64,000 bases of DNA from a virus. The stretch is taken from the IMG/VR virus record IMGVR_UViG_3300042397_000787; one strand, given 5' to 3'. Below the pieces are notes generated by a model. That model made no database searches. It was not told the DNA's origin and was given only the letters and a program-made list of their open reading frames with translations. Position numbers and translations under genes: made by a program. This document shows, one piece after another, positions 11,106 through 38,260 of the stretch (within the stretch, counting starts at the first letter, position 1; each line of letters opens with the position of its first letter).

Positions 11106-11546
11106 TCAGGCCTCGTCCCAATCCTCATACATCTCGGTAATACCCCATTGCTCGTTCAAATCATCTGGGATATTGGACAGGTCATCGGGGTCGATATCAA
11201 ACGACACCTCTTCGCCGTTGACATATTGACCAACGAAGGATGACTCGAAGTATTGGCCGTTGACGGTGAATCCCTGTTCCATGAGTTCATCATAGAAGGC
11301 ACAAGGTGGTGACCATGCGGTCTCAAATCCTACACAAACTGCCTCTGGCATCAAACGGTCGATGACCTCACCATTGGAGATATCCCACTTGGTACCCCAA
11401 GATTCGACGGCATCATCCCAGCTCCATTCAGCCAGAGGCACAAACGTCTGAAACAGATTGCCATCACGGACAGCCTGCTCAAACTTGTCAATCATTGCGG
11501 GATCCGCATGTTCTACGGTAACAGTATTTGAACACCAATTAGGCAT
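11106..11546 (-). CDS. YubB/DUF1281-like ferredoxin-fold protein
   Basis: MPNWCSN, WGTKWD, FETAWSPP. Confidence 0.75.
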   Translation of the reverse strand: MPNWCSNTVTVEHADPAMIDKFEQAVRDGNLFQTFVPLAEWSWDDAVESWGTKWDISNGEVIDRLMPEAVCVGFETAWSPPCAFYDELMEQGFTVNGQYFESSFVGQYVNGEEVSFDIDPDDLSNIPDDLNEQWGITEMYEDWDEA

Positions 11547-13591: not shown

Positions 13592-13956
13592 CGCTTGTTC
13601 TTTCTCTGTTGTTCAATAAAATCTTTGTTGCCTACCCAGGTGTAGGCCTTATATCGAATCTTATTTTCTGCCATCATGTCTTGCTTCGTGAACACAATAT
13701 GTCCATCGGTAATCATCTTTTCAGCCAGCTTGACTGCCATTTCCTTCTTGAACCTGCCTTCCATTTCGTCCGGCGTACCACGTTGCATGAGCCAGTCTTT
13801 ATCATGTTCAAGGGTGTAATCAACCAAGCTACCTGGCATGCTGTAATCATACTTGATCGGAGCAGCACTGATGGTACCGTTAGAGAAGCTATCGACTGGT
13901 ATTGAAATGCTATCCCAGTCCAATGGTTTAAACGCGCCTGTGTTACCGATTGCCAT
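13588..13956 (-). CDS. Hypothetical protein
   Basis: Coupled to ligase. Confidence 0.6.
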   Translation of the reverse strand: MAIGNTGAFKPLDWDSISIPVDSFSNGTISAAPIKYDYSMPGSLVDYTLEHDKDWLMQRGTPDEMEGRFKKEMAVKLAEKMITDGHIVFTKQDMMAENKIRYKAYTWVGNKDFIEQQRKNKR

Positions 13957-19191: not shown

Positions 19192-19367
19192 GCGTTTTCT
19201 TCAAGCCATTCTATCTGGTGATTAGCTACCGTAATGGAAACTATGTTGCCGCCATCGTCCTCAAGGGTCAGGTCCACCCCAGTGGAGTTTTCTCTTGTCT
19301 TGGCCTCGTGGACGAAATAAATCTTACCAGCATGTTCCCAGCTGTCGTTGTCTATTCTACAGTGCAT
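19188..19367 (-). CDS. Hypothetical protein (59 aa, not in ORF track)
   Basis: MHCRIDNDSWEHAGKIYFV...; stop inside TTGACA. Confidence 0.55.
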   Translation of the reverse strand: MHCRIDNDSWEHAGKIYFVHEAKTRENSTGVDLTLEDDGGNIVSITVANHQIEWLEENA

Positions 19368-20718
19368 AGTGATGCTCCAAATACGCTCTTAGTTGTTCCA
19401 TACTGACTTTGGTATCTACCATAAAGTCTTCTTTATTTAGGTATACAAATGTAAACGCCTTTTCAAGATAAGTCTTACCATTTTCTATATCATATCTTTC
19501 TTGCTTGTTCCAAAGGACAATAAAATGCTTTCCATTATTAGGAACTACAAAACTATGATCGCCAAATTGTTCTTGCATCATCTGTTTAAGTTCGCCCGTG
19601 TATAACGGGTGGTCGTCATTTCTACCACCATAATAAAAACGGTCGCCTTCAACTAATAAAGCGTCTGCTACTGGTCTTGGTGCTGGCCAGAGGTCAGAGT
19701 GAACCATATCACCGTCGATCTTGTATAGGTCATCTACCAATTTACCTATATATCCTGGTTGGTATACGGAATCTGGTGTTATTCTATTTACCAGCAAAGG
19801 TACACCAGTATCGACAGAGCCGTAATGGGACATGAAATCTATTGGATATTCTTTGGTCATATCGTATATCTCTGGCCCAGCTGGAAACCCAGACATATTG
19901 ATTGTAATTCTATGACTAGGACGCCGATCGGCCTCAGGAAAACCGAGTTTCAGTGCGTCTAGCACAAAACTATTAGAGCATATCAGAGTGTCTACTTTTC
20001 TATCGGTCAAACATTCTTCGACAAATTCTTTTGGGCGCCATATTTTCTTTTGGTGATGAGGAACCCAAGCAACGCTTCCAGAATAATGAACGTCACACAC
20101 CATTAGAGTTGGAAGAAGATATGATAACATAGCAGAAGCATGGTGCATATTTACCGTCTGTTGCACCACGTTCCGCTTAGTATAACCAAAAGCAGATATA
20201 TTTCTTTGCGAAATCTTATACACCTCATCGTGGGTAAAGAAGTATGGCTTAGATACGCCTGTGGTACCACTAGTTGAAGCGAATATCAGAGCATCACTAG
20301 GAGAAACGGGTATATCTACATCTGTGTCGTTTGTTATCTCATCGATTTCATCTTCGTAACAAACCTGCTTGCTATATCGCTCAAACATTTCAGTCTGTAG
20401 GTCATTTTCATCCAACATTCTCTGAGAGATAGTTATATCAACAGGACCAAATATTGCCATCTTTGTAACATGAAGTGTTTCTTTGGCAATTGGCTTGGCA
20501 ATGATGAAAATTTTCAATCCTAATTCTGCGGCTGCAAATAGACAGGCAATATGATTTAAGTTTACATCAAAAATACCAAGGGCCATTACATCACCGCTGC
20601 GAAGTTCCTTGTATATCAGAAGTCTCTTCCAACGGTTGATGAGGCGAAATAGATCATCTCTATTCGCCCCATCGTAGTTTATGTCAGGATTGATTATATG
20701 CCTGTTAATCACGGGCAT
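19357..20718 (-). CDS. AMP-binding (ANL superfamily) adenylate-forming enzyme, paralog 1
   Basis: STSGTTGVSKP P-loop, HYGSVDTG, YGGR. Confidence 0.75.
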   Translation of the reverse strand: MPVINRHIINPDINYDGANRDDLFRLINRWKRLLIYKELRSGDVMALGIFDVNLNHIACLFAAAELGLKIFIIAKPIAKETLHVTKMAIFGPVDITISQRMLDENDLQTEMFERYSKQVCYEDEIDEITNDTDVDIPVSPSDALIFASTSGTTGVSKPYFFTHDEVYKISQRNISAFGYTKRNVVQQTVNMHHASAMLSYLLPTLMVCDVHYSGSVAWVPHHQKKIWRPKEFVEECLTDRKVDTLICSNSFVLDALKLGFPEADRRPSHRITINMSGFPAGPEIYDMTKEYPIDFMSHYGSVDTGVPLLVNRITPDSVYQPGYIGKLVDDLYKIDGDMVHSDLWPAPRPVADALLVEGDRFYYGGRNDDHPLYTGELKQMMQEQFGDHSFVVPNNGKHFIVLWNKQERYDIENGKTYLEKAFTFVYLNKEDFMVDTKVSMEQLRAYLEHHYAL

Positions 20719-30238: not shown

Positions 30239-30313
30239 TGGTAGCCCGAACGGGTTTCGATCCCGCTTCTCCGCCTTGAAAGGGCGGTGTCCTAGCCACT
30301 AGACGACCGGGCC
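30239..30313 (-). tRNA. tRNA-Glu(TTC)
   Basis: Cloverleaf; T-loop ATCGAAA. Confidence 0.9.
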
Positions 30314-30395: not shown

Positions 30396-30473
30396 TGGAG
30401 CGCCGAGCCGGATTCGAACCGGCGGTTTTACGGATTTGCAATCCGTTGCGATGGACCACTCCGCCATCGGCGC
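30396..30473 (-). tRNA. tRNA-Cys(GCA)
   Basis: U73, CCA. Confidence 0.92.
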
Positions 30474-30474
30474 T

Positions 30475-30546
30475 TGGTACCAGCAGGTGGTAATGATCCA
30501 CCCAAACTAACCTTATGAGAGTCAGTCGAACACCTGTTCTACTGGT
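30475..30546 (-). tRNA. Aberrant tRNA(CAT), possibly elongator Met
   Basis: ACCAGTA/TGCTGGT-A-CCA; mini D arm GAAC-AGGT-GTTC; loop CTCATAA; T arm GGTGG-ATCATTA-CCACC. Confidence 0.65.
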
Positions 30547-30547
30547 G

Positions 30548-30623
30548 TGGTGCGAATAACAGGAATTGAACCTGTGACCTTTCCCTTATCAGGGGAATGC
30601 TCTACCATCTGAGCTATATTCGC
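30548..30623 (-). tRNA. tRNA-Ile(GAT)
   Basis: Canonical. Confidence 0.95.
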
Positions 30624-31253: not shown

Positions 31254-31328
31254 TGGTAGACGAGGAGGGACTCGAACCCCCAACCTAACCGTTATGAGCG
31301 GTCGGCTCTACCATTGAGCTACTCGTCT
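31254..31328 (-). tRNA. tRNA(CAT), probably Ile2
   Basis: ACCGCTCATAACGGT arm typical of Ile2, A73. Confidence 0.85.
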
Positions 31329-31524: not shown

Positions 31525-31584
31525 GACGAATCACTTTCTCTCTGACTATATTCTCATAATAGCTGATTCGCCGGTAAATGTCAA
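31525..31584 (-). promoter_or_regulatory. Early promoter/leader cassette copy 15
   Basis: TTGACA-TTTACCGGCGAATCAGC-TATTAT; AGTCAGAGAGAAAGTGATTCGTC-ATG. Confidence 0.85.
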
Positions 31585-32861
31585 GTGCTAAATTTTTCTA
31601 GATATCCCAAAAGTTGATAAACATTGACCTTGGTTTCGGTAGTCCATTGTTCTTTACTGAGGTAATGAACGGTCATACCAGGCACTTCAACGCCCTCACT
31701 ATCATTCCAGATGATTAGGTTGTTTCCGTAAACAGATAGGTCTTTCTTTAGCAGACGCTTACATGCCTTTTCAACGGGATCTACCTCAACACGGCCGTTA
31801 TGATACCACTTACCATTCTTCTCGGTCAACTTATCTTCTAGAACTCTACGTCCTACCCAAGGACCTTCTACTAGAATTTCATCACCCGTAATGATCTTGT
31901 AGTAATCATCAGGCTCTACGCCTAGCCAATTTTCTTGCCATTTGGAATGCTTTGTCACATGATTCAACAAAAGGGGAATGCCCGTATCTACAGAACCGAA
32001 GTGCGATAGAAACTCTACGTTGAAGAACTCGCAATACTCCACATATTCAGCCGGGATAGTATAGCCACTGAGATTAATCAGCAGAGTTGCATCAAACTGG
32101 TCTGAGAAATATTTTACCAAATCACGGACGACAAATGCACTACCAAAGAAAACTCTATCTACCTTCTTTTCTTTGATGAACGTAAAGAAGTTCGGCATAT
32201 CATCATAGATATTATAGTAATAGTGCTTATCTGCTACCATAAGAGCAGGTAGCAAGAAGGTCATCATACAACTAACGTGATGCATGTTTCGGGTATGACA
32301 AACTACGGATTGTGGTTCGAACTTGAAAACGCCTGTGTTTCTCTTTGAGAGGTCGAAGCAATCTTTCTGCGTGAAGTATACCGGTTTAGGTCTGCTGGTT
32401 GTTCCACTTGATGAACCACAAAGAAAGATTTCATCGGGCGAACTATAATCTTCCAACATTTTTTCTGTGACGCTATCAATTTCTGTCTCGAAAATGTTCA
32501 TTTTACAGTAGCGATTTACCATTTCCATATATGGTTCGCTTTTTGCAAGATATTCATCTACGACATGGAAGTCAATAGGATTAAATACCGAGGCTTTTGT
32601 TCGGTCAATCGTTTCAACGGCCGCTGGCTTATCAAGTAATACCAGTCTCATTGCCAATTCACCCGCTGCAAAAATAAGGGCTAGATGATTTGGGCTTACC
32701 ATGACAAGAGAAATGCCAAGGGAGTCTCCTCTCATGGCACCTCTTTTGACTAAGAGAAATTTCCATCGATCAATTAAGCTACACATTTCTTCGCGGGAAA
32801 CTACATTTCCTTTTTCATCTTCATATGAAAAATTGTCAGTCAAAATGTTCTTGTTGATCAT
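31581..32861 (-). CDS. AMP-binding (ANL) enzyme, paralog 2
   Basis: SSSGTTSRPKP, HFGSVDTG, HNGR. Confidence 0.75.
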   Translation of the reverse strand: MINKNILTDNFSYEDEKGNVVSREEMCSLIDRWKFLLVKRGAMRGDSLGISLVMVSPNHLALIFAAGELAMRLVLLDKPAAVETIDRTKASVFNPIDFHVVDEYLAKSEPYMEMVNRYCKMNIFETEIDSVTEKMLEDYSSPDEIFLCGSSSGTTSRPKPVYFTQKDCFDLSKRNTGVFKFEPQSVVCHTRNMHHVSCMMTFLLPALMVADKHYYYNIYDDMPNFFTFIKEKKVDRVFFGSAFVVRDLVKYFSDQFDATLLINLSGYTIPAEYVEYCEFFNVEFLSHFGSVDTGIPLLLNHVTKHSKWQENWLGVEPDDYYKIITGDEILVEGPWVGRRVLEDKLTEKNGKWYHNGRVEVDPVEKACKRLLKKDLSVYGNNLIIWNDSEGVEVPGMTVHYLSKEQWTTETKVNVYQLLGYLEKFST

Positions 32862-34918: not shown

Positions 34919-35000
34919 TGGAGCCCAAGATAGGATTCGAACCTACATCTTACTTCCAGTTACCTTTGGCTCCGTTCGTAGCGGAGAGGGATACTTGGGC
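34919..35000 (-). tRNA. Rearranged tRNA-Arg(ACG)-like RNA lacking a conventionally placed D arm
   Basis: GCCCAAG/CTTGGGC-T-CCA; TATCCCT; CTCCG-CTACGAA-CGGAG; 23-nt insert; GTAGG-TTCGAAT-CCTAT. Confidence 0.7.
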
Positions 35001-35833: not shown

Positions 35834-35918
35834 TGGTGGGCCAGTGAGGTATCGATCCTCCCCCGAAGACGGACGAGATTTACAGTCTCGCTGCTAGAGC
35901 CACTAGCTTTACCGACCC
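35834..35918 (-). tRNA. tRNA-Tyr(GTA), possible 8/4 fold
   Basis: GGGTCGGT/ACTGGCCC-A-CCA; GAGG-ATCGATA-CCTC; 5-bp D stem. Confidence 0.8.
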
Positions 35919-36300: not shown

Positions 36301-36534
36301 TTATTTTTTATAAGAGTTAATATATTTTTGGTATTCTTTGTTTGGATGATTTACCAATCGTTTATGGTACAGATCAATTATAGTTTTTGCGGCCGTACCA
36401 GGCAACAGATTAGGAAAAAATCCATGTATGAAACTTGCTAATGCTGCCCAAAGTAATCTCAGTCCAGCCGAATTTGCAAAAACAAAATGGCTTAAATAAG
36501 TTTCTTTGCTTTTTTCTAAGTGTTCTCTAAACAT
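36301..36534 (-). CDS. DUF6356-like protein
   Basis: FREHL...ETYLSHF..A..IHG..P. Confidence 0.65.
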   Translation of the reverse strand: MFREHLEKSKETYLSHFVFANSAGLRLLWAALASFIHGFFPNLLPGTAAKTIIDLYHKRLVNHPNKEYQKYINSYKK

Positions 36535-37982
36535 CTAAAAAATTCCCTCATTAATTCTTTATCTAACTTGACTCCAAAATAGTAATCTTTGAAATCCAGA
36601 ATTGCAAACTTATCTATACGAACTAGATTGGTTCCGTGATGAAAGAGAATTGCAGCATCTATTTCCATAACTAATTCGTTTATATCTTTATCATAAGACG
36701 AGTTGATTGCTAGATAGATTTGGTTTTCGATAATATCTATAACAACAGAAACGTTGTTATCATATTTAGCAGAAATATTTTCAAGGAATGGCAAGTCTAC
36801 TGTAGTATCATTGATACGAATGACATCGGTGCGCCCGGTATGTTTATACTCATGCCAGTGGGCTTTTACCTTCACGAACTTATCATTCGTAGCTACCGTC
36901 TTATCATAAACGGGCATGTGAACTAAGAGACCGCCTTCTTCATCGAAAGAAACGCCATAGAAAGCATCTGGTTTAAAAAACTCGGTGTTATCAAAAGTAT
37001 CGGCATTAACCGCGGTTAATCTGGACAACAGAAGTGGTCCAGCAGTTTCATTGCAACCAAAAACACTTTCTATGCTTTCAACATAACCTTCTTTCACATA
37101 TTTCGTATAATCATATGGAATGTAAGACAGAAGATCCAAACGCATATTTGGATATTTTACGCCGTGATTTTCCAACGAAGTAAAAAACTTATCGGAAAGA
37201 TCCCTATATGATAAAGTGGCATGATTGATATCTTGGTCCTTCAAAGTCAGGACTAAGTTATCAAGAATTTCCGCGCGGTGTGACATAAGATAGTGGTTCT
37301 TTACCGCATCGCTATGCAACGAAGGTAAGAAAAACACACTCAAACTACTACCGTGATTAAGGTTTCTGCTATGCAGAACGTTACCCGAAAATCTCGACGA
37401 ATTTCTCTTACACAATTCATAGAAAAATCTATGTGTATGTGTAAGTAGCTTCGGAGTATTTGTGGTACCGCTGCTGGTGCATATCATTAAAGTATCGTCT
37501 GGGTGCGGCCGAATTACAGAGATTTCATCAAATCTTTTTTGATTGTCAACTGTAATAAGACGCAAATCCTCAATGCTAAATGATTTATTGCAATAGTCTA
37601 TGAACCACGCGGATTTAGAATATGAATAACCGGCAGCATCATGAATATAGATGTTGATAGGCGACAGTAACTTAACTTTAGGATTTACCTTATCACTAGC
37701 CAGATATGCTGGCAGTTGATCCGCAATAGTAACTACCAAGGACAACTCGAAACTGGCAAAACAAAGGGCAAGATAGTCACTATCTACCACTAGTAGTCCG
37801 ATAAGAATCCTATCGCCTTTTTTGGCGCCGCATGTTTCAGTTAAAACATACTTCCAATGGTCAATCTTCTTGACCAATTCATCTTTATTAATCGAATCTG
37901 GTGTGGGGTATTCTGTTGCAAGAGGACTAATGTCTACGCTTTGATAATTGTCCGAGATAAAATCTCTCGTTAAAGTCTGCAT
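36516..37982 (-). CDS. AMP-binding (ANL) enzyme, paralog 3
   Basis: TSSGTTNTPK, VFGCNETAG, HTGRTD; start MQTLTRD after GGAGA. Confidence 0.8.
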   Translation of the reverse strand: MQTLTRDFISDNYQSVDISPLATEYPTPDSINKDELVKKIDHWKYVLTETCGAKKGDRILIGLLVVDSDYLALCFASFELSLVVTIADQLPAYLASDKVNPKVKLLSPINIYIHDAAGYSYSKSAWFIDYCNKSFSIEDLRLITVDNQKRFDEISVIRPHPDDTLMICTSSGTTNTPKLLTHTHRFFYELCKRNSSRFSGNVLHSRNLNHGSSLSVFFLPSLHSDAVKNHYLMSHRAEILDNLVLTLKDQDINHATLSYRDLSDKFFTSLENHGVKYPNMRLDLLSYIPYDYTKYVKEGYVESIESVFGCNETAGPLLLSRLTAVNADTFDNTEFFKPDAFYGVSFDEEGGLLVHMPVYDKTVATNDKFVKVKAHWHEYKHTGRTDVIRINDTTVDLPFLENISAKYDNNVSVVIDIIENQIYLAINSSYDKDINELVMEIDAAILFHHGTNLVRIDKFAILDFKDYYFGVKLDKELMREFFRCLENT

Positions 37983-38010
37983 AACATCTCCATTGTTTAA
38001 AACATAAAGC

Positions 38011-38159
38011 GAAGTGGGTGGATTCGGATATACCACCAAGCAACTAGCCAAATACCTATGTATCTATTTCGTCGCCACGACTCGTTAGCTGGTTAAGCAG
38101 GAGACCAATCCCCGAGTCTACCTTATCCCCTCTGGCAGGAGAGTATTCAGTCACACTTC
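38011..38159 (-). ncRNA. Unassigned structured RNA B
   Basis: GAAGTG/CACTTC closing stem, GACTCG/CGAGTC and GGTGG/CCACC stems. Confidence 0.55.
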
Positions 38160-38185: not shown

Positions 38186-38260
38186 TGGTTGCAGGAGTCG
38201 GACTTGAACCGACGACCTTCTGGTTATGAGCCAGACGAGCTACCACTGCTCCACCCTGCG
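38186..38260 (-). tRNA. tRNA-fMet(CAT)
   Basis: C1.A72 mismatch; anticodon stem TCTGG/CCAGA. Confidence 0.9.

Follow-up and report, generated by a model that had tools for sequence, protein, structure and literature searches.

The question raised by this locus is whether a short gap within a phage tRNA island holds one more tRNA gene and, if it does, which amino acid that tRNA would carry. The window (the whole stretch of 64,000 nucleotides that was analysed) belongs to an IMG/VR virus record of 103.6 kb, whose completeness is estimated at 59%. On its minus strand, from about 28.2 to 38.4 kb, lies a tRNA island in which 23 tRNAs are called by ARAGORN at default settings. Two of these, tRNA-Ile(GAU) upstream (30548–30623, minus strand) and tRNA-Cys(GCA) downstream (30396–30473, minus strand), leave a gap of 74 bases between them, and a candidate tRNA gene with a CAU anticodon (30475–30546, minus strand) occupies that gap with a single spacer base on either side. 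Most relatives share the order Ile, candidate, Cys. In textbook tRNAs of bacterial type, U8, a connector of two bases and the T54-A58 pair are all retained, and the exceptions known to us so far are tRNAPyl and organellar tRNAs. Judged by sequence comparison, the stretch at 30475–30546 is a real, conserved phage tRNA gene and, on balance, the RNA is probably a functional compact-core elongator tRNA-Met of the phage.

A compact cloverleaf in the gap between tRNA-Ile and tRNA-Cys

On the minus strand, the letters from 30546 down to 30475 divide into ACCAGTA, GAAC, AGGT, GTTC, G, ACTGACT, CTCATAA, GGTTAGT, TTG, GGTGG, ATCATTA, CCACC, TGCTGGT, A and CCA, and these 72 nucleotides, with the encoded CCA included, fold on the strand and at the positions that an earlier note on this DNA had claimed. 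The 5′ strand of the acceptor stem (ACCAGUA, positions 1–7; 30540–30546) pairs with UGCUGGU (30479–30485) and is abutted by the D hairpin GAAC-AGGU-GUUC (30528–30539), which has a four-nucleotide loop with GG; nucleotides 8 and 9 are absent. A lone junction nucleotide, the G equivalent to position 26 (30527), leads into the anticodon arm (30506–30526), made of the 7-bp stem ACUGACU/GGUUAGU and the loop CUCAUAA, with the CAU anticodon at 30515–30517, where the plus strand reads ATG. The variable loop UUG (3 nt, 30503–30505), the T arm GGUGG-AUCAUUA-CCACC (30486–30502) and discriminator A73 with the encoded CCA (30475–30478) complete the molecule. The same note had reported a D stem starting directly after the acceptor strand, an ATCATTA T-loop, full pairing of all stems and an encoded CCA, and each of these can be read from the letters. 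The gene scores 89.7 bits with covariance model R1.

Several features of the standard cloverleaf are retained, namely the 7-bp acceptor stem, the discriminator, the CCA, the 5-bp T stem with its 7-nt loop, and the anticodon loop of 7 nt, in which position 33 is U and position 37 a purine. Others are missing: the connector is 0 nt (versus U8 and N9), the D-loop 4 nt (versus 7–11 nt with A14 and A21) and the variable loop 3 nt (versus at least 4 nt). At the elbow, G18, G19, U55 and C56 are present in the window copy, and A54 and U58 replace T54 and A58. The predicted energy of the single sequence is −24.7 kcal/mol (z = −2.27), a value equalled in stability by 6 of 200 shuffles. Since this is only modestly above the shuffled sequences, the case for the candidate rests on comparison.

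Response of tRNA finders

The earlier note had predicted that standard finders would overlook the gene, and this was borne out: the candidate is not called by ARAGORN at default settings, and the Rfam tRNA model RF00005 gives no match even at E ≤ 10. The gathering score of that model is 29 bits, and relatives that carry a TTCGATA T-loop reach 28.5–36.7 bits. The relaxed and mitochondrial modes of ARAGORN do call a tRNA-Met(cat) at this position, with the acceptor stem displaced by 2 nt into the CCA of the upstream tRNA and with two mismatches. That displaced stem was rejected on account of its mismatches, its overlap with the upstream CCA and the lack of any remaining CCA end; it is the 7-bp stem described above that covaries instead.

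Homologues of the compact tRNA

Pattern scans recovered 52 related loci, representing 30 distinct sequences, from phage contigs, metagenomes and an Acidobacteriota chromosome, with most of the homologue-bearing records being genome fragments. The homologues were retrieved by sequence patterns, so that some columns were fixed in each scan. One scan held the D stem and loop fixed; others left free the anticodon arm and T arm, the acceptor stem, anticodon stem and T arm, the 5′ acceptor strand, D arm and 5′ anticodon strand, or the anticodon arm and acceptor stem. A metagenome scan left the acceptor stem, anticodon loop and T arm free, and species-representative bacterial genomes were also scanned. 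Eight loci (L023, L030, L039, L068, L070–L072 and L074) were discarded as chance pattern matches. When the 72-mer was searched by blastn in 50,697 records of cultured phages, only chance matches were returned, and the family is therefore unseen in cultured phages at that sensitivity. An exact search with a 17-mer from the T arm returned unrelated DNA only, and a search from the neighbouring AMP-binding protein returned no related loci.

Segment lengths are identical in all distinct sequences but two, and the connector is zero in 28 of the 30. The flanking spacers and neighbouring genes vary among relatives while the length of the compact tRNA stays constant. One subfamily has A73 followed by CCA, kept throughout; the other has U73 and mostly lacks an encoded CCA, although L043 does encode it. 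In the arrays of that second subfamily, CCA is missing from other tRNAs as well.

The family can be arranged as a graded series. At its first step stand members with a one-base connector and a canonical T-loop (L033 and L062:1922–1994); at the second the connector is absent and the T-loop is TTCGATA; at the third the 54:58 pair is swapped (ATCGTTA, or ATCATTA in the window); and at the fourth A18/G55 appear (AAGT with AGCGTTA). The RF00005 score declines along this series from 36.7 bits to no match. A literature search, of incomplete coverage, found no description of such a phage tRNA.

Two copies in the metagenome contig L027 were set aside as a probable duplicated or chimeric assembly. There, L027:1070–4574 matches the window exactly over some 2.2 kb, after which a Lys-Ile-compactCAU-Cys-Ser-His-Leu module of another lineage is repeated, which would fit a duplication or an assembly chimera.

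Covariation and conserved contacts

The earlier note had proposed homologue covariation as a check, and the stems proved to be both conserved and covarying in relatives. Among 27 ungapped distinct homologues, 96.4% of the cells in the alignment are paired, versus 21–44% when the 3′ partners are slid. Double-sided changes occur at 16 pairs and all four helices covary in these 27 sequences, with double changes at five of the seven acceptor pairs, at six of the seven anticodon-stem pairs and covariation at two T-stem pairs. When the D stem was left unconstrained it was recovered as GUGC/GCAC, GAGC/GCUC and GGAU/GUCC. The covariation score was reached by none of 500 shuffles, and RNAalifold, with no structure supplied, returned the same 7/4/7/5 cloverleaf with 15 of its 23 pairs compensatory. 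Compensatory changes in every helix, together with the RNAalifold fold, rule out decay or chance.

The anticodon loop CUCAUAA is invariant and is retained by every true match in three scans that left the loop free. CAU is present in 30 of 30 distinct sequences, and a scan with the anticodon arm and acceptor stem free found no such scaffold with any other anticodon. G19 and C56 are likewise invariant, each also in scans that left that base free. The 54:58 pair is A:U in 21 and U:A in six of the 27 sequences, with pairing kept in every case. Each subfamily contains both states, so the switch must have occurred more than once. At 18:55, which joins the second base of the D-loop to the second of the T-loop, 14 distinct sequences have G:U and the other 16 have A:G, without exception, a correlation that may stem from few events. 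The 11:24 pair is A11:U24 in the window and purine:pyrimidine in 23 of the 27 sequences. The first pair, 1:72, is a weak A-U or G·U in the subfamily of the window.

Assignment of the CAU tRNAs in the window

The window carries two further tRNAs with a CAU anticodon, which the earlier note had taken for fMet and Ile2, and their sequences agree with both assignments. The tRNA at 38186–38260 (minus strand) is a canonical initiator tRNA-fMet with C1×A72 and A11:U24; a 1:72 mismatch and A11:U24 are marks of initiators (PMC9976931). The tRNA at 31254–31328 (minus strand) is of canonical elongator type and is best read as tRNA-Ile2, having A73, C4-G69, U12-A23 and C29-G41, the last three of which are stem determinants of bacterial tRNA-Ile (Table 1, PMC9976931). 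Attempts to classify this second tRNA by similarity failed: no E. coli match was present, the phage matches are annotated as Ile, Met or Asn, with the best of them bearing an 'isotype disagreement' note, and a nearest-neighbour comparison leans weakly to Ile(UAU) (0.80 versus 0.77).

The candidate lacks all three Ile determinants and has A4-U69, A12-U23 and A29-U41 in their place. It combines the CAU anticodon with A73 and the paired 1:72 (A1-U72, hence no initiator mismatch) of an elongator tRNA-Met, and its anticodon stem reads from the loop outward U·G, C-G, A-U, G·U and U-A, with no run of three G:C pairs. Of the acceptor pairs listed for E. coli MetRS only C3-G70 fits, along with A73, the candidate having C2-G71, A4-U69 and G5-C68 versus G2-C71, U4-A69 and A5-U68; these are minor determinants, and the determinant lists, drawn from E. 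coli, may not hold for the host of the phage. The CAU anticodon alone suffices for the E. coli enzyme (PMC9976931). Codon usage of the phage gives 25.5 AUG and 11.8 AUA per 1000 codons. Neither a MetRS gene nor a TilS-type PP-loop gene was found in the 103.6-kb record, so that host enzymes would act on these tRNAs.

The methionine slot in related tRNA arrays

Related arrays provide the further evidence on identity. In four arrays that contain both Ile(GAU) and Ile(UAU), the compact tRNA is the only non-initiator CAU tRNA. These are G001 (U73 subfamily; 23 canonical tRNAs for 19 amino acids), G010 (of the window's own A73-CCA type; 28 canonical tRNAs, among them a canonical C1×A72 initiator), G011 (23 canonical tRNAs, with a canonical CAU tRNA absent from the array region) and the Acidobacteriota chromosomal array (30 canonical tRNAs that cover 19 amino acids; its compact copy has C1×A72). 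A compact CAU tRNA standing alone beside Ile(GAU) and Ile(UAU) points to the Met slot, and the earlier claim that the candidate is the only elongator-Met candidate left is upheld by these Ile(UAU)-bearing arrays. Conversely, all arrays without Ile(UAU) (the window, L016, L020, L049 and L062) carry a second elongator-type CAU tRNA. The complementary pattern has exceptions, since in L012, L014 and L060 the compact CAU tRNA occurs alongside both Ile(UAU) and a canonical CAU tRNA; and because the records are mostly fragments, a canonical tRNA-Met could lie elsewhere in those genomes. The distribution of these genes is best read as a constant CAU partner that would serve Met and a variable one that would read AUA.

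The tRNA-Ile(UAU) of the related arrays, which is absent from the window and would read AUA directly, is 90–95 nt long. It has a long variable arm of about 20 nt with a conserved CAGAUUAG-like loop, a GGUCC acceptor stem and A73-CCA, the long variable arm being unusual for an Ile tRNA. It was located at L064:1953–2047, on the reverse strand of L077 at 11360–11451 (in the orientation used here), at L060:650–743 and at 13667–13756 on the complement strand of the joined stretch L075/L076, and also in L012, L014, L015, L037, L038, L041, L044 and L067.

A second compact CAU tRNA, 73 nt long, lies immediately upstream of the 72-nt one at L062:1922–1994 (identical to L042:508–580 and L043:605–677). 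It has a one-base connector, a D hairpin GGAU-UGGU-AUCC, a canonical T-loop and A73-CCA, and since the L062 array lacks Ile(UAU) it is possibly a compact tRNA-Ile2. The compact CAU tRNA of the Acidobacteriota metagenome-assembled genome (OY969418, about 598.5–605.1 kb; L069:3924–3995, minus strand, and L075/L076; also L067) has C1×A72 and a CGCGGG acceptor stem and is initiator-like; no canonical CAU tRNA is present among the 30 canonical tRNAs of that array.

Proposed maturation and use, and alternative readings

From the fold, the conservation, the covariation and the place in the tRNA set observed above, we infer processing, charging and decoding along the following lines. The candidate would be co-transcribed with its neighbours in the order Ile(GAU), candidate, Cys, Gly, Glu, Ser and His; promoter and terminator scans gave matches at consensus level only. 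Its 5′ end would be cut by RNase P, and the encoded CCA would be exposed once RNase P had cut the following tRNA and one base had then been trimmed. The acceptor and T stems would form a normal 12-bp stack, and the 7-bp anticodon stem with the 3-nt variable loop would offset the missing 8/9 connector and the 4-nt D-loop. The D tetraloop would contact the T-loop through G19:C56 and 18:55, with 54:58 retained in swapped form as A:U. Host MetRS would recognise the CAU anticodon and A73, and EF-Tu would deliver the charged tRNA to internal AUG codons because 1:72 is paired.

It is quite unlikely that the roles of the two elongator-type CAU tRNAs are exchanged, with the candidate as the AUA-reading tRNA-Ile2 (its C34 converted to lysidine by host TilS and the tRNA charged by IleRS) and the tRNA at 31254–31328 as the elongator tRNA-Met. 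The CAU anticodon, A37, A38 and A73 are common to Met and Ile2 tRNAs, and one CAU tRNA should indeed be Ile2 in a window that has no tRNA-Ile(UAU) and uses AUA at the frequency given above. However, C4-G69, U12-A23 and C29-G41 are all found in the canonical tRNA at 31254–31328 and not in the candidate, the record has no TilS-type PP-loop gene, and methionine would go uncovered in the arrays that already carry Ile(UAU) and Ile(GAU) and have no non-initiator CAU tRNA other than the compact one. We regard as similarly improbable an initiator-derived Met tRNA that still initiates, or that, like the single tRNA-Met of mitochondria, serves in elongation as well. This reading draws on the Acidobacteriota copies, in which C1×A72 or A1×A72 accompanies CGCGGG in the acceptor stem and the anticodon stem contains a GGG/CCC run; on G1×A72 in L033, the 1:72 mismatch being confined to L033, L067 and L069; on the R11:Y24 D stem of most members, the GAGC/GCUC of L046 being that of the window's own initiator; on the weak 1:72 pair of the window's subfamily; and on R1, which gives canonical initiators 32–37 bits and canonical elongator-type CAU tRNAs 17–28 bits. 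The mismatch and CGCGGG-type stem in some relatives, with R11:Y24 in most, suggest that the family may descend from an initiator and that some members may still initiate. The window copy, on the other hand, has a paired A1-U72, C2-G71 rather than G2-C71 and no G:C run beside the loop, and a canonical initiator is already present in this phage (38186–38260) and in G010.

A conserved but non-decoding tRNA-shaped RNA, acting as a processing spacer in the operon or as a decoy or sponge that occupies a tRNA-targeting nuclease or a modification enzyme of the host, is unlikely, albeit slightly less so than the Ile2 and initiator readings. The absence of U8, A14, A21, T54 and A58 and the lack of any RF00005 score would be in keeping with it, but a spacer needs no invariant 7-base loop with U33 and A37, no 12-bp stack, no discriminator with CCA and no elbow contacts, and the candidate fills the single empty amino-acid slot in four array types. 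Decay to a pseudogene, or a chance fold in a spacer, is highly improbable: the modest single-sequence fold (z = −2.27) and the rejection of the candidate by tRNA finders are set against lengths that are exact to the base in 28 of 30 distinct sequences and against compensatory changes in every helix, and this reading is judged to be refuted. The preferred reading remains that of an elongator tRNA-Met with a compact core.

Comparison with known tRNAs and implications

The candidate shares with a canonical bacterial elongator tRNA-Met the CUCAUAA loop, A73, C3-G70, the paired 1:72, the 7/5 stack of acceptor and T stems and the encoded CCA. It differs in lacking U8/N9, in the 4-nt D-loop, 7-bp anticodon stem, 3-nt variable loop and A54/U58, in the absence of G2-C71, U4-A69 and A5-U68, and in drawing a blank with RF00005. 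With an initiator tRNA-fMet it shares R11:Y24, and its Acidobacteriota relatives share the 1:72 mismatch and the CGCGGG stem, whereas the window copy is paired at 1:72, has no GGG/CCC run and coexists with a separate canonical initiator.

The earlier note had also spoken of a mitochondrial-style reduction. Bovine mitochondrial tRNASer(UGA), formerly UCN, has a one-nucleotide connector, a small D-loop and an extended anticodon stem. In architecture the candidate comes closest to the compact core that this tRNA and tRNAPyl share, and not to a tRNA that has lost an arm. The mitochondrial tRNA differs from the phage family in being organellar, in its anticodon and amino acid and in keeping one connector nucleotide versus none. 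It is the only tRNA named as similar to tRNAPyl in a study that cites Watanabe et al. 1994 (PMC11764691). In tRNAPyl the connector is one base (none in the deltaPylSn class), the D-loop 3–5 bases, the anticodon stem 6 bp and the variable loop 3 bases, with an altered T-loop, and despite this compact core the molecule is an L-shape that works on the ribosome (PMC11764691). The candidate falls within the same limits: a connector of 0–1 nt, 3–5 nt in the D-loop, an anticodon stem 6 bp or longer and a variable loop of 3 nt. Its T-loop likewise departs from the consensus, but it has CAU rather than CUA, a 7-bp anticodon stem and a retained G19:C56. It also lies in phage tRNA arrays, shows no sequence relationship to tRNAPyl and has no dedicated synthetase in sight, no MetRS being present in the record.

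What emerges is a conserved compact family, found in phages and in a tRNA array on a bacterial chromosome and apparently serving a standard amino acid. In this family the connector is dropped, the D-loop is down to four bases, and two elbow contacts have been rewired in a correlated manner. If its members are charged and decode, phage tRNA complements would be systematically under-counted, and annotation would leave some arrays apparently without a tRNA-Met; the natural variants would show which core contacts are dispensable, and a new small scaffold would be available for tRNA engineering. A more speculative reading, held to be rather unlikely, is that the compact tRNA-Met belongs to a set of phage tRNAs that has been remodelled on purpose, with cores and elbows altered to evade host nucleases or modification and surveillance while the tRNAs are still charged and used. 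The basis cited for such a set is the long-armed tRNA-Ile(UAU) and the A54/U58 T-loops of related arrays and, if it were real, phages would have arrived independently, for a standard amino acid, at the minimal solution of tRNAPyl and mitochondria.

Other features of the island and related arrays

T-loops of the A54 type are also found in otherwise canonical tRNAs, as ATCGTTA in an Ile(GAU) (L046:8764–8837, minus strand), AGCGTTG in a Gly(UCC) (L034:1293–1367, plus strand) and ATCGAAA in the Glu tRNA of the window (30239–30313, minus strand). Their presence in canonical cloverleaf tRNAs indicates that the elbow rewiring is not confined to the CAU tRNA.

Some of the ARAGORN calls in related arrays have uncommon anticodons: a tRNA with CUA, of amber suppressor type, in the G010 array (L077, 12923–13000 in the orientation used here), a tRNA with UCA in the G004 array (L065:590–659) and a Ser(ACU) tRNA in the G003 array (L062:2187–2276). 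These could be suppressors or miscalls.

Within the window, a tRNA-sized gene at 34922–35000 (minus strand) is missed by ARAGORN and scores 31.1 bits with RF00005, and another of 85 nt with a GUA anticodon at 35834–35918 (minus strand) is matched by neither ARAGORN nor RF00005. Three divergent AMP-binding (adenylate-forming) open reading frames are present at 19357–20718, 31581–32861 and 36516–38051, all on the minus strand, the last two within the tRNA island. Directly 5′ of the frame at 36516–38051 lies a manA RNA motif (RF01745; 38007–38179, minus strand), which scores 65.1 bits versus a gathering score of 55.2.
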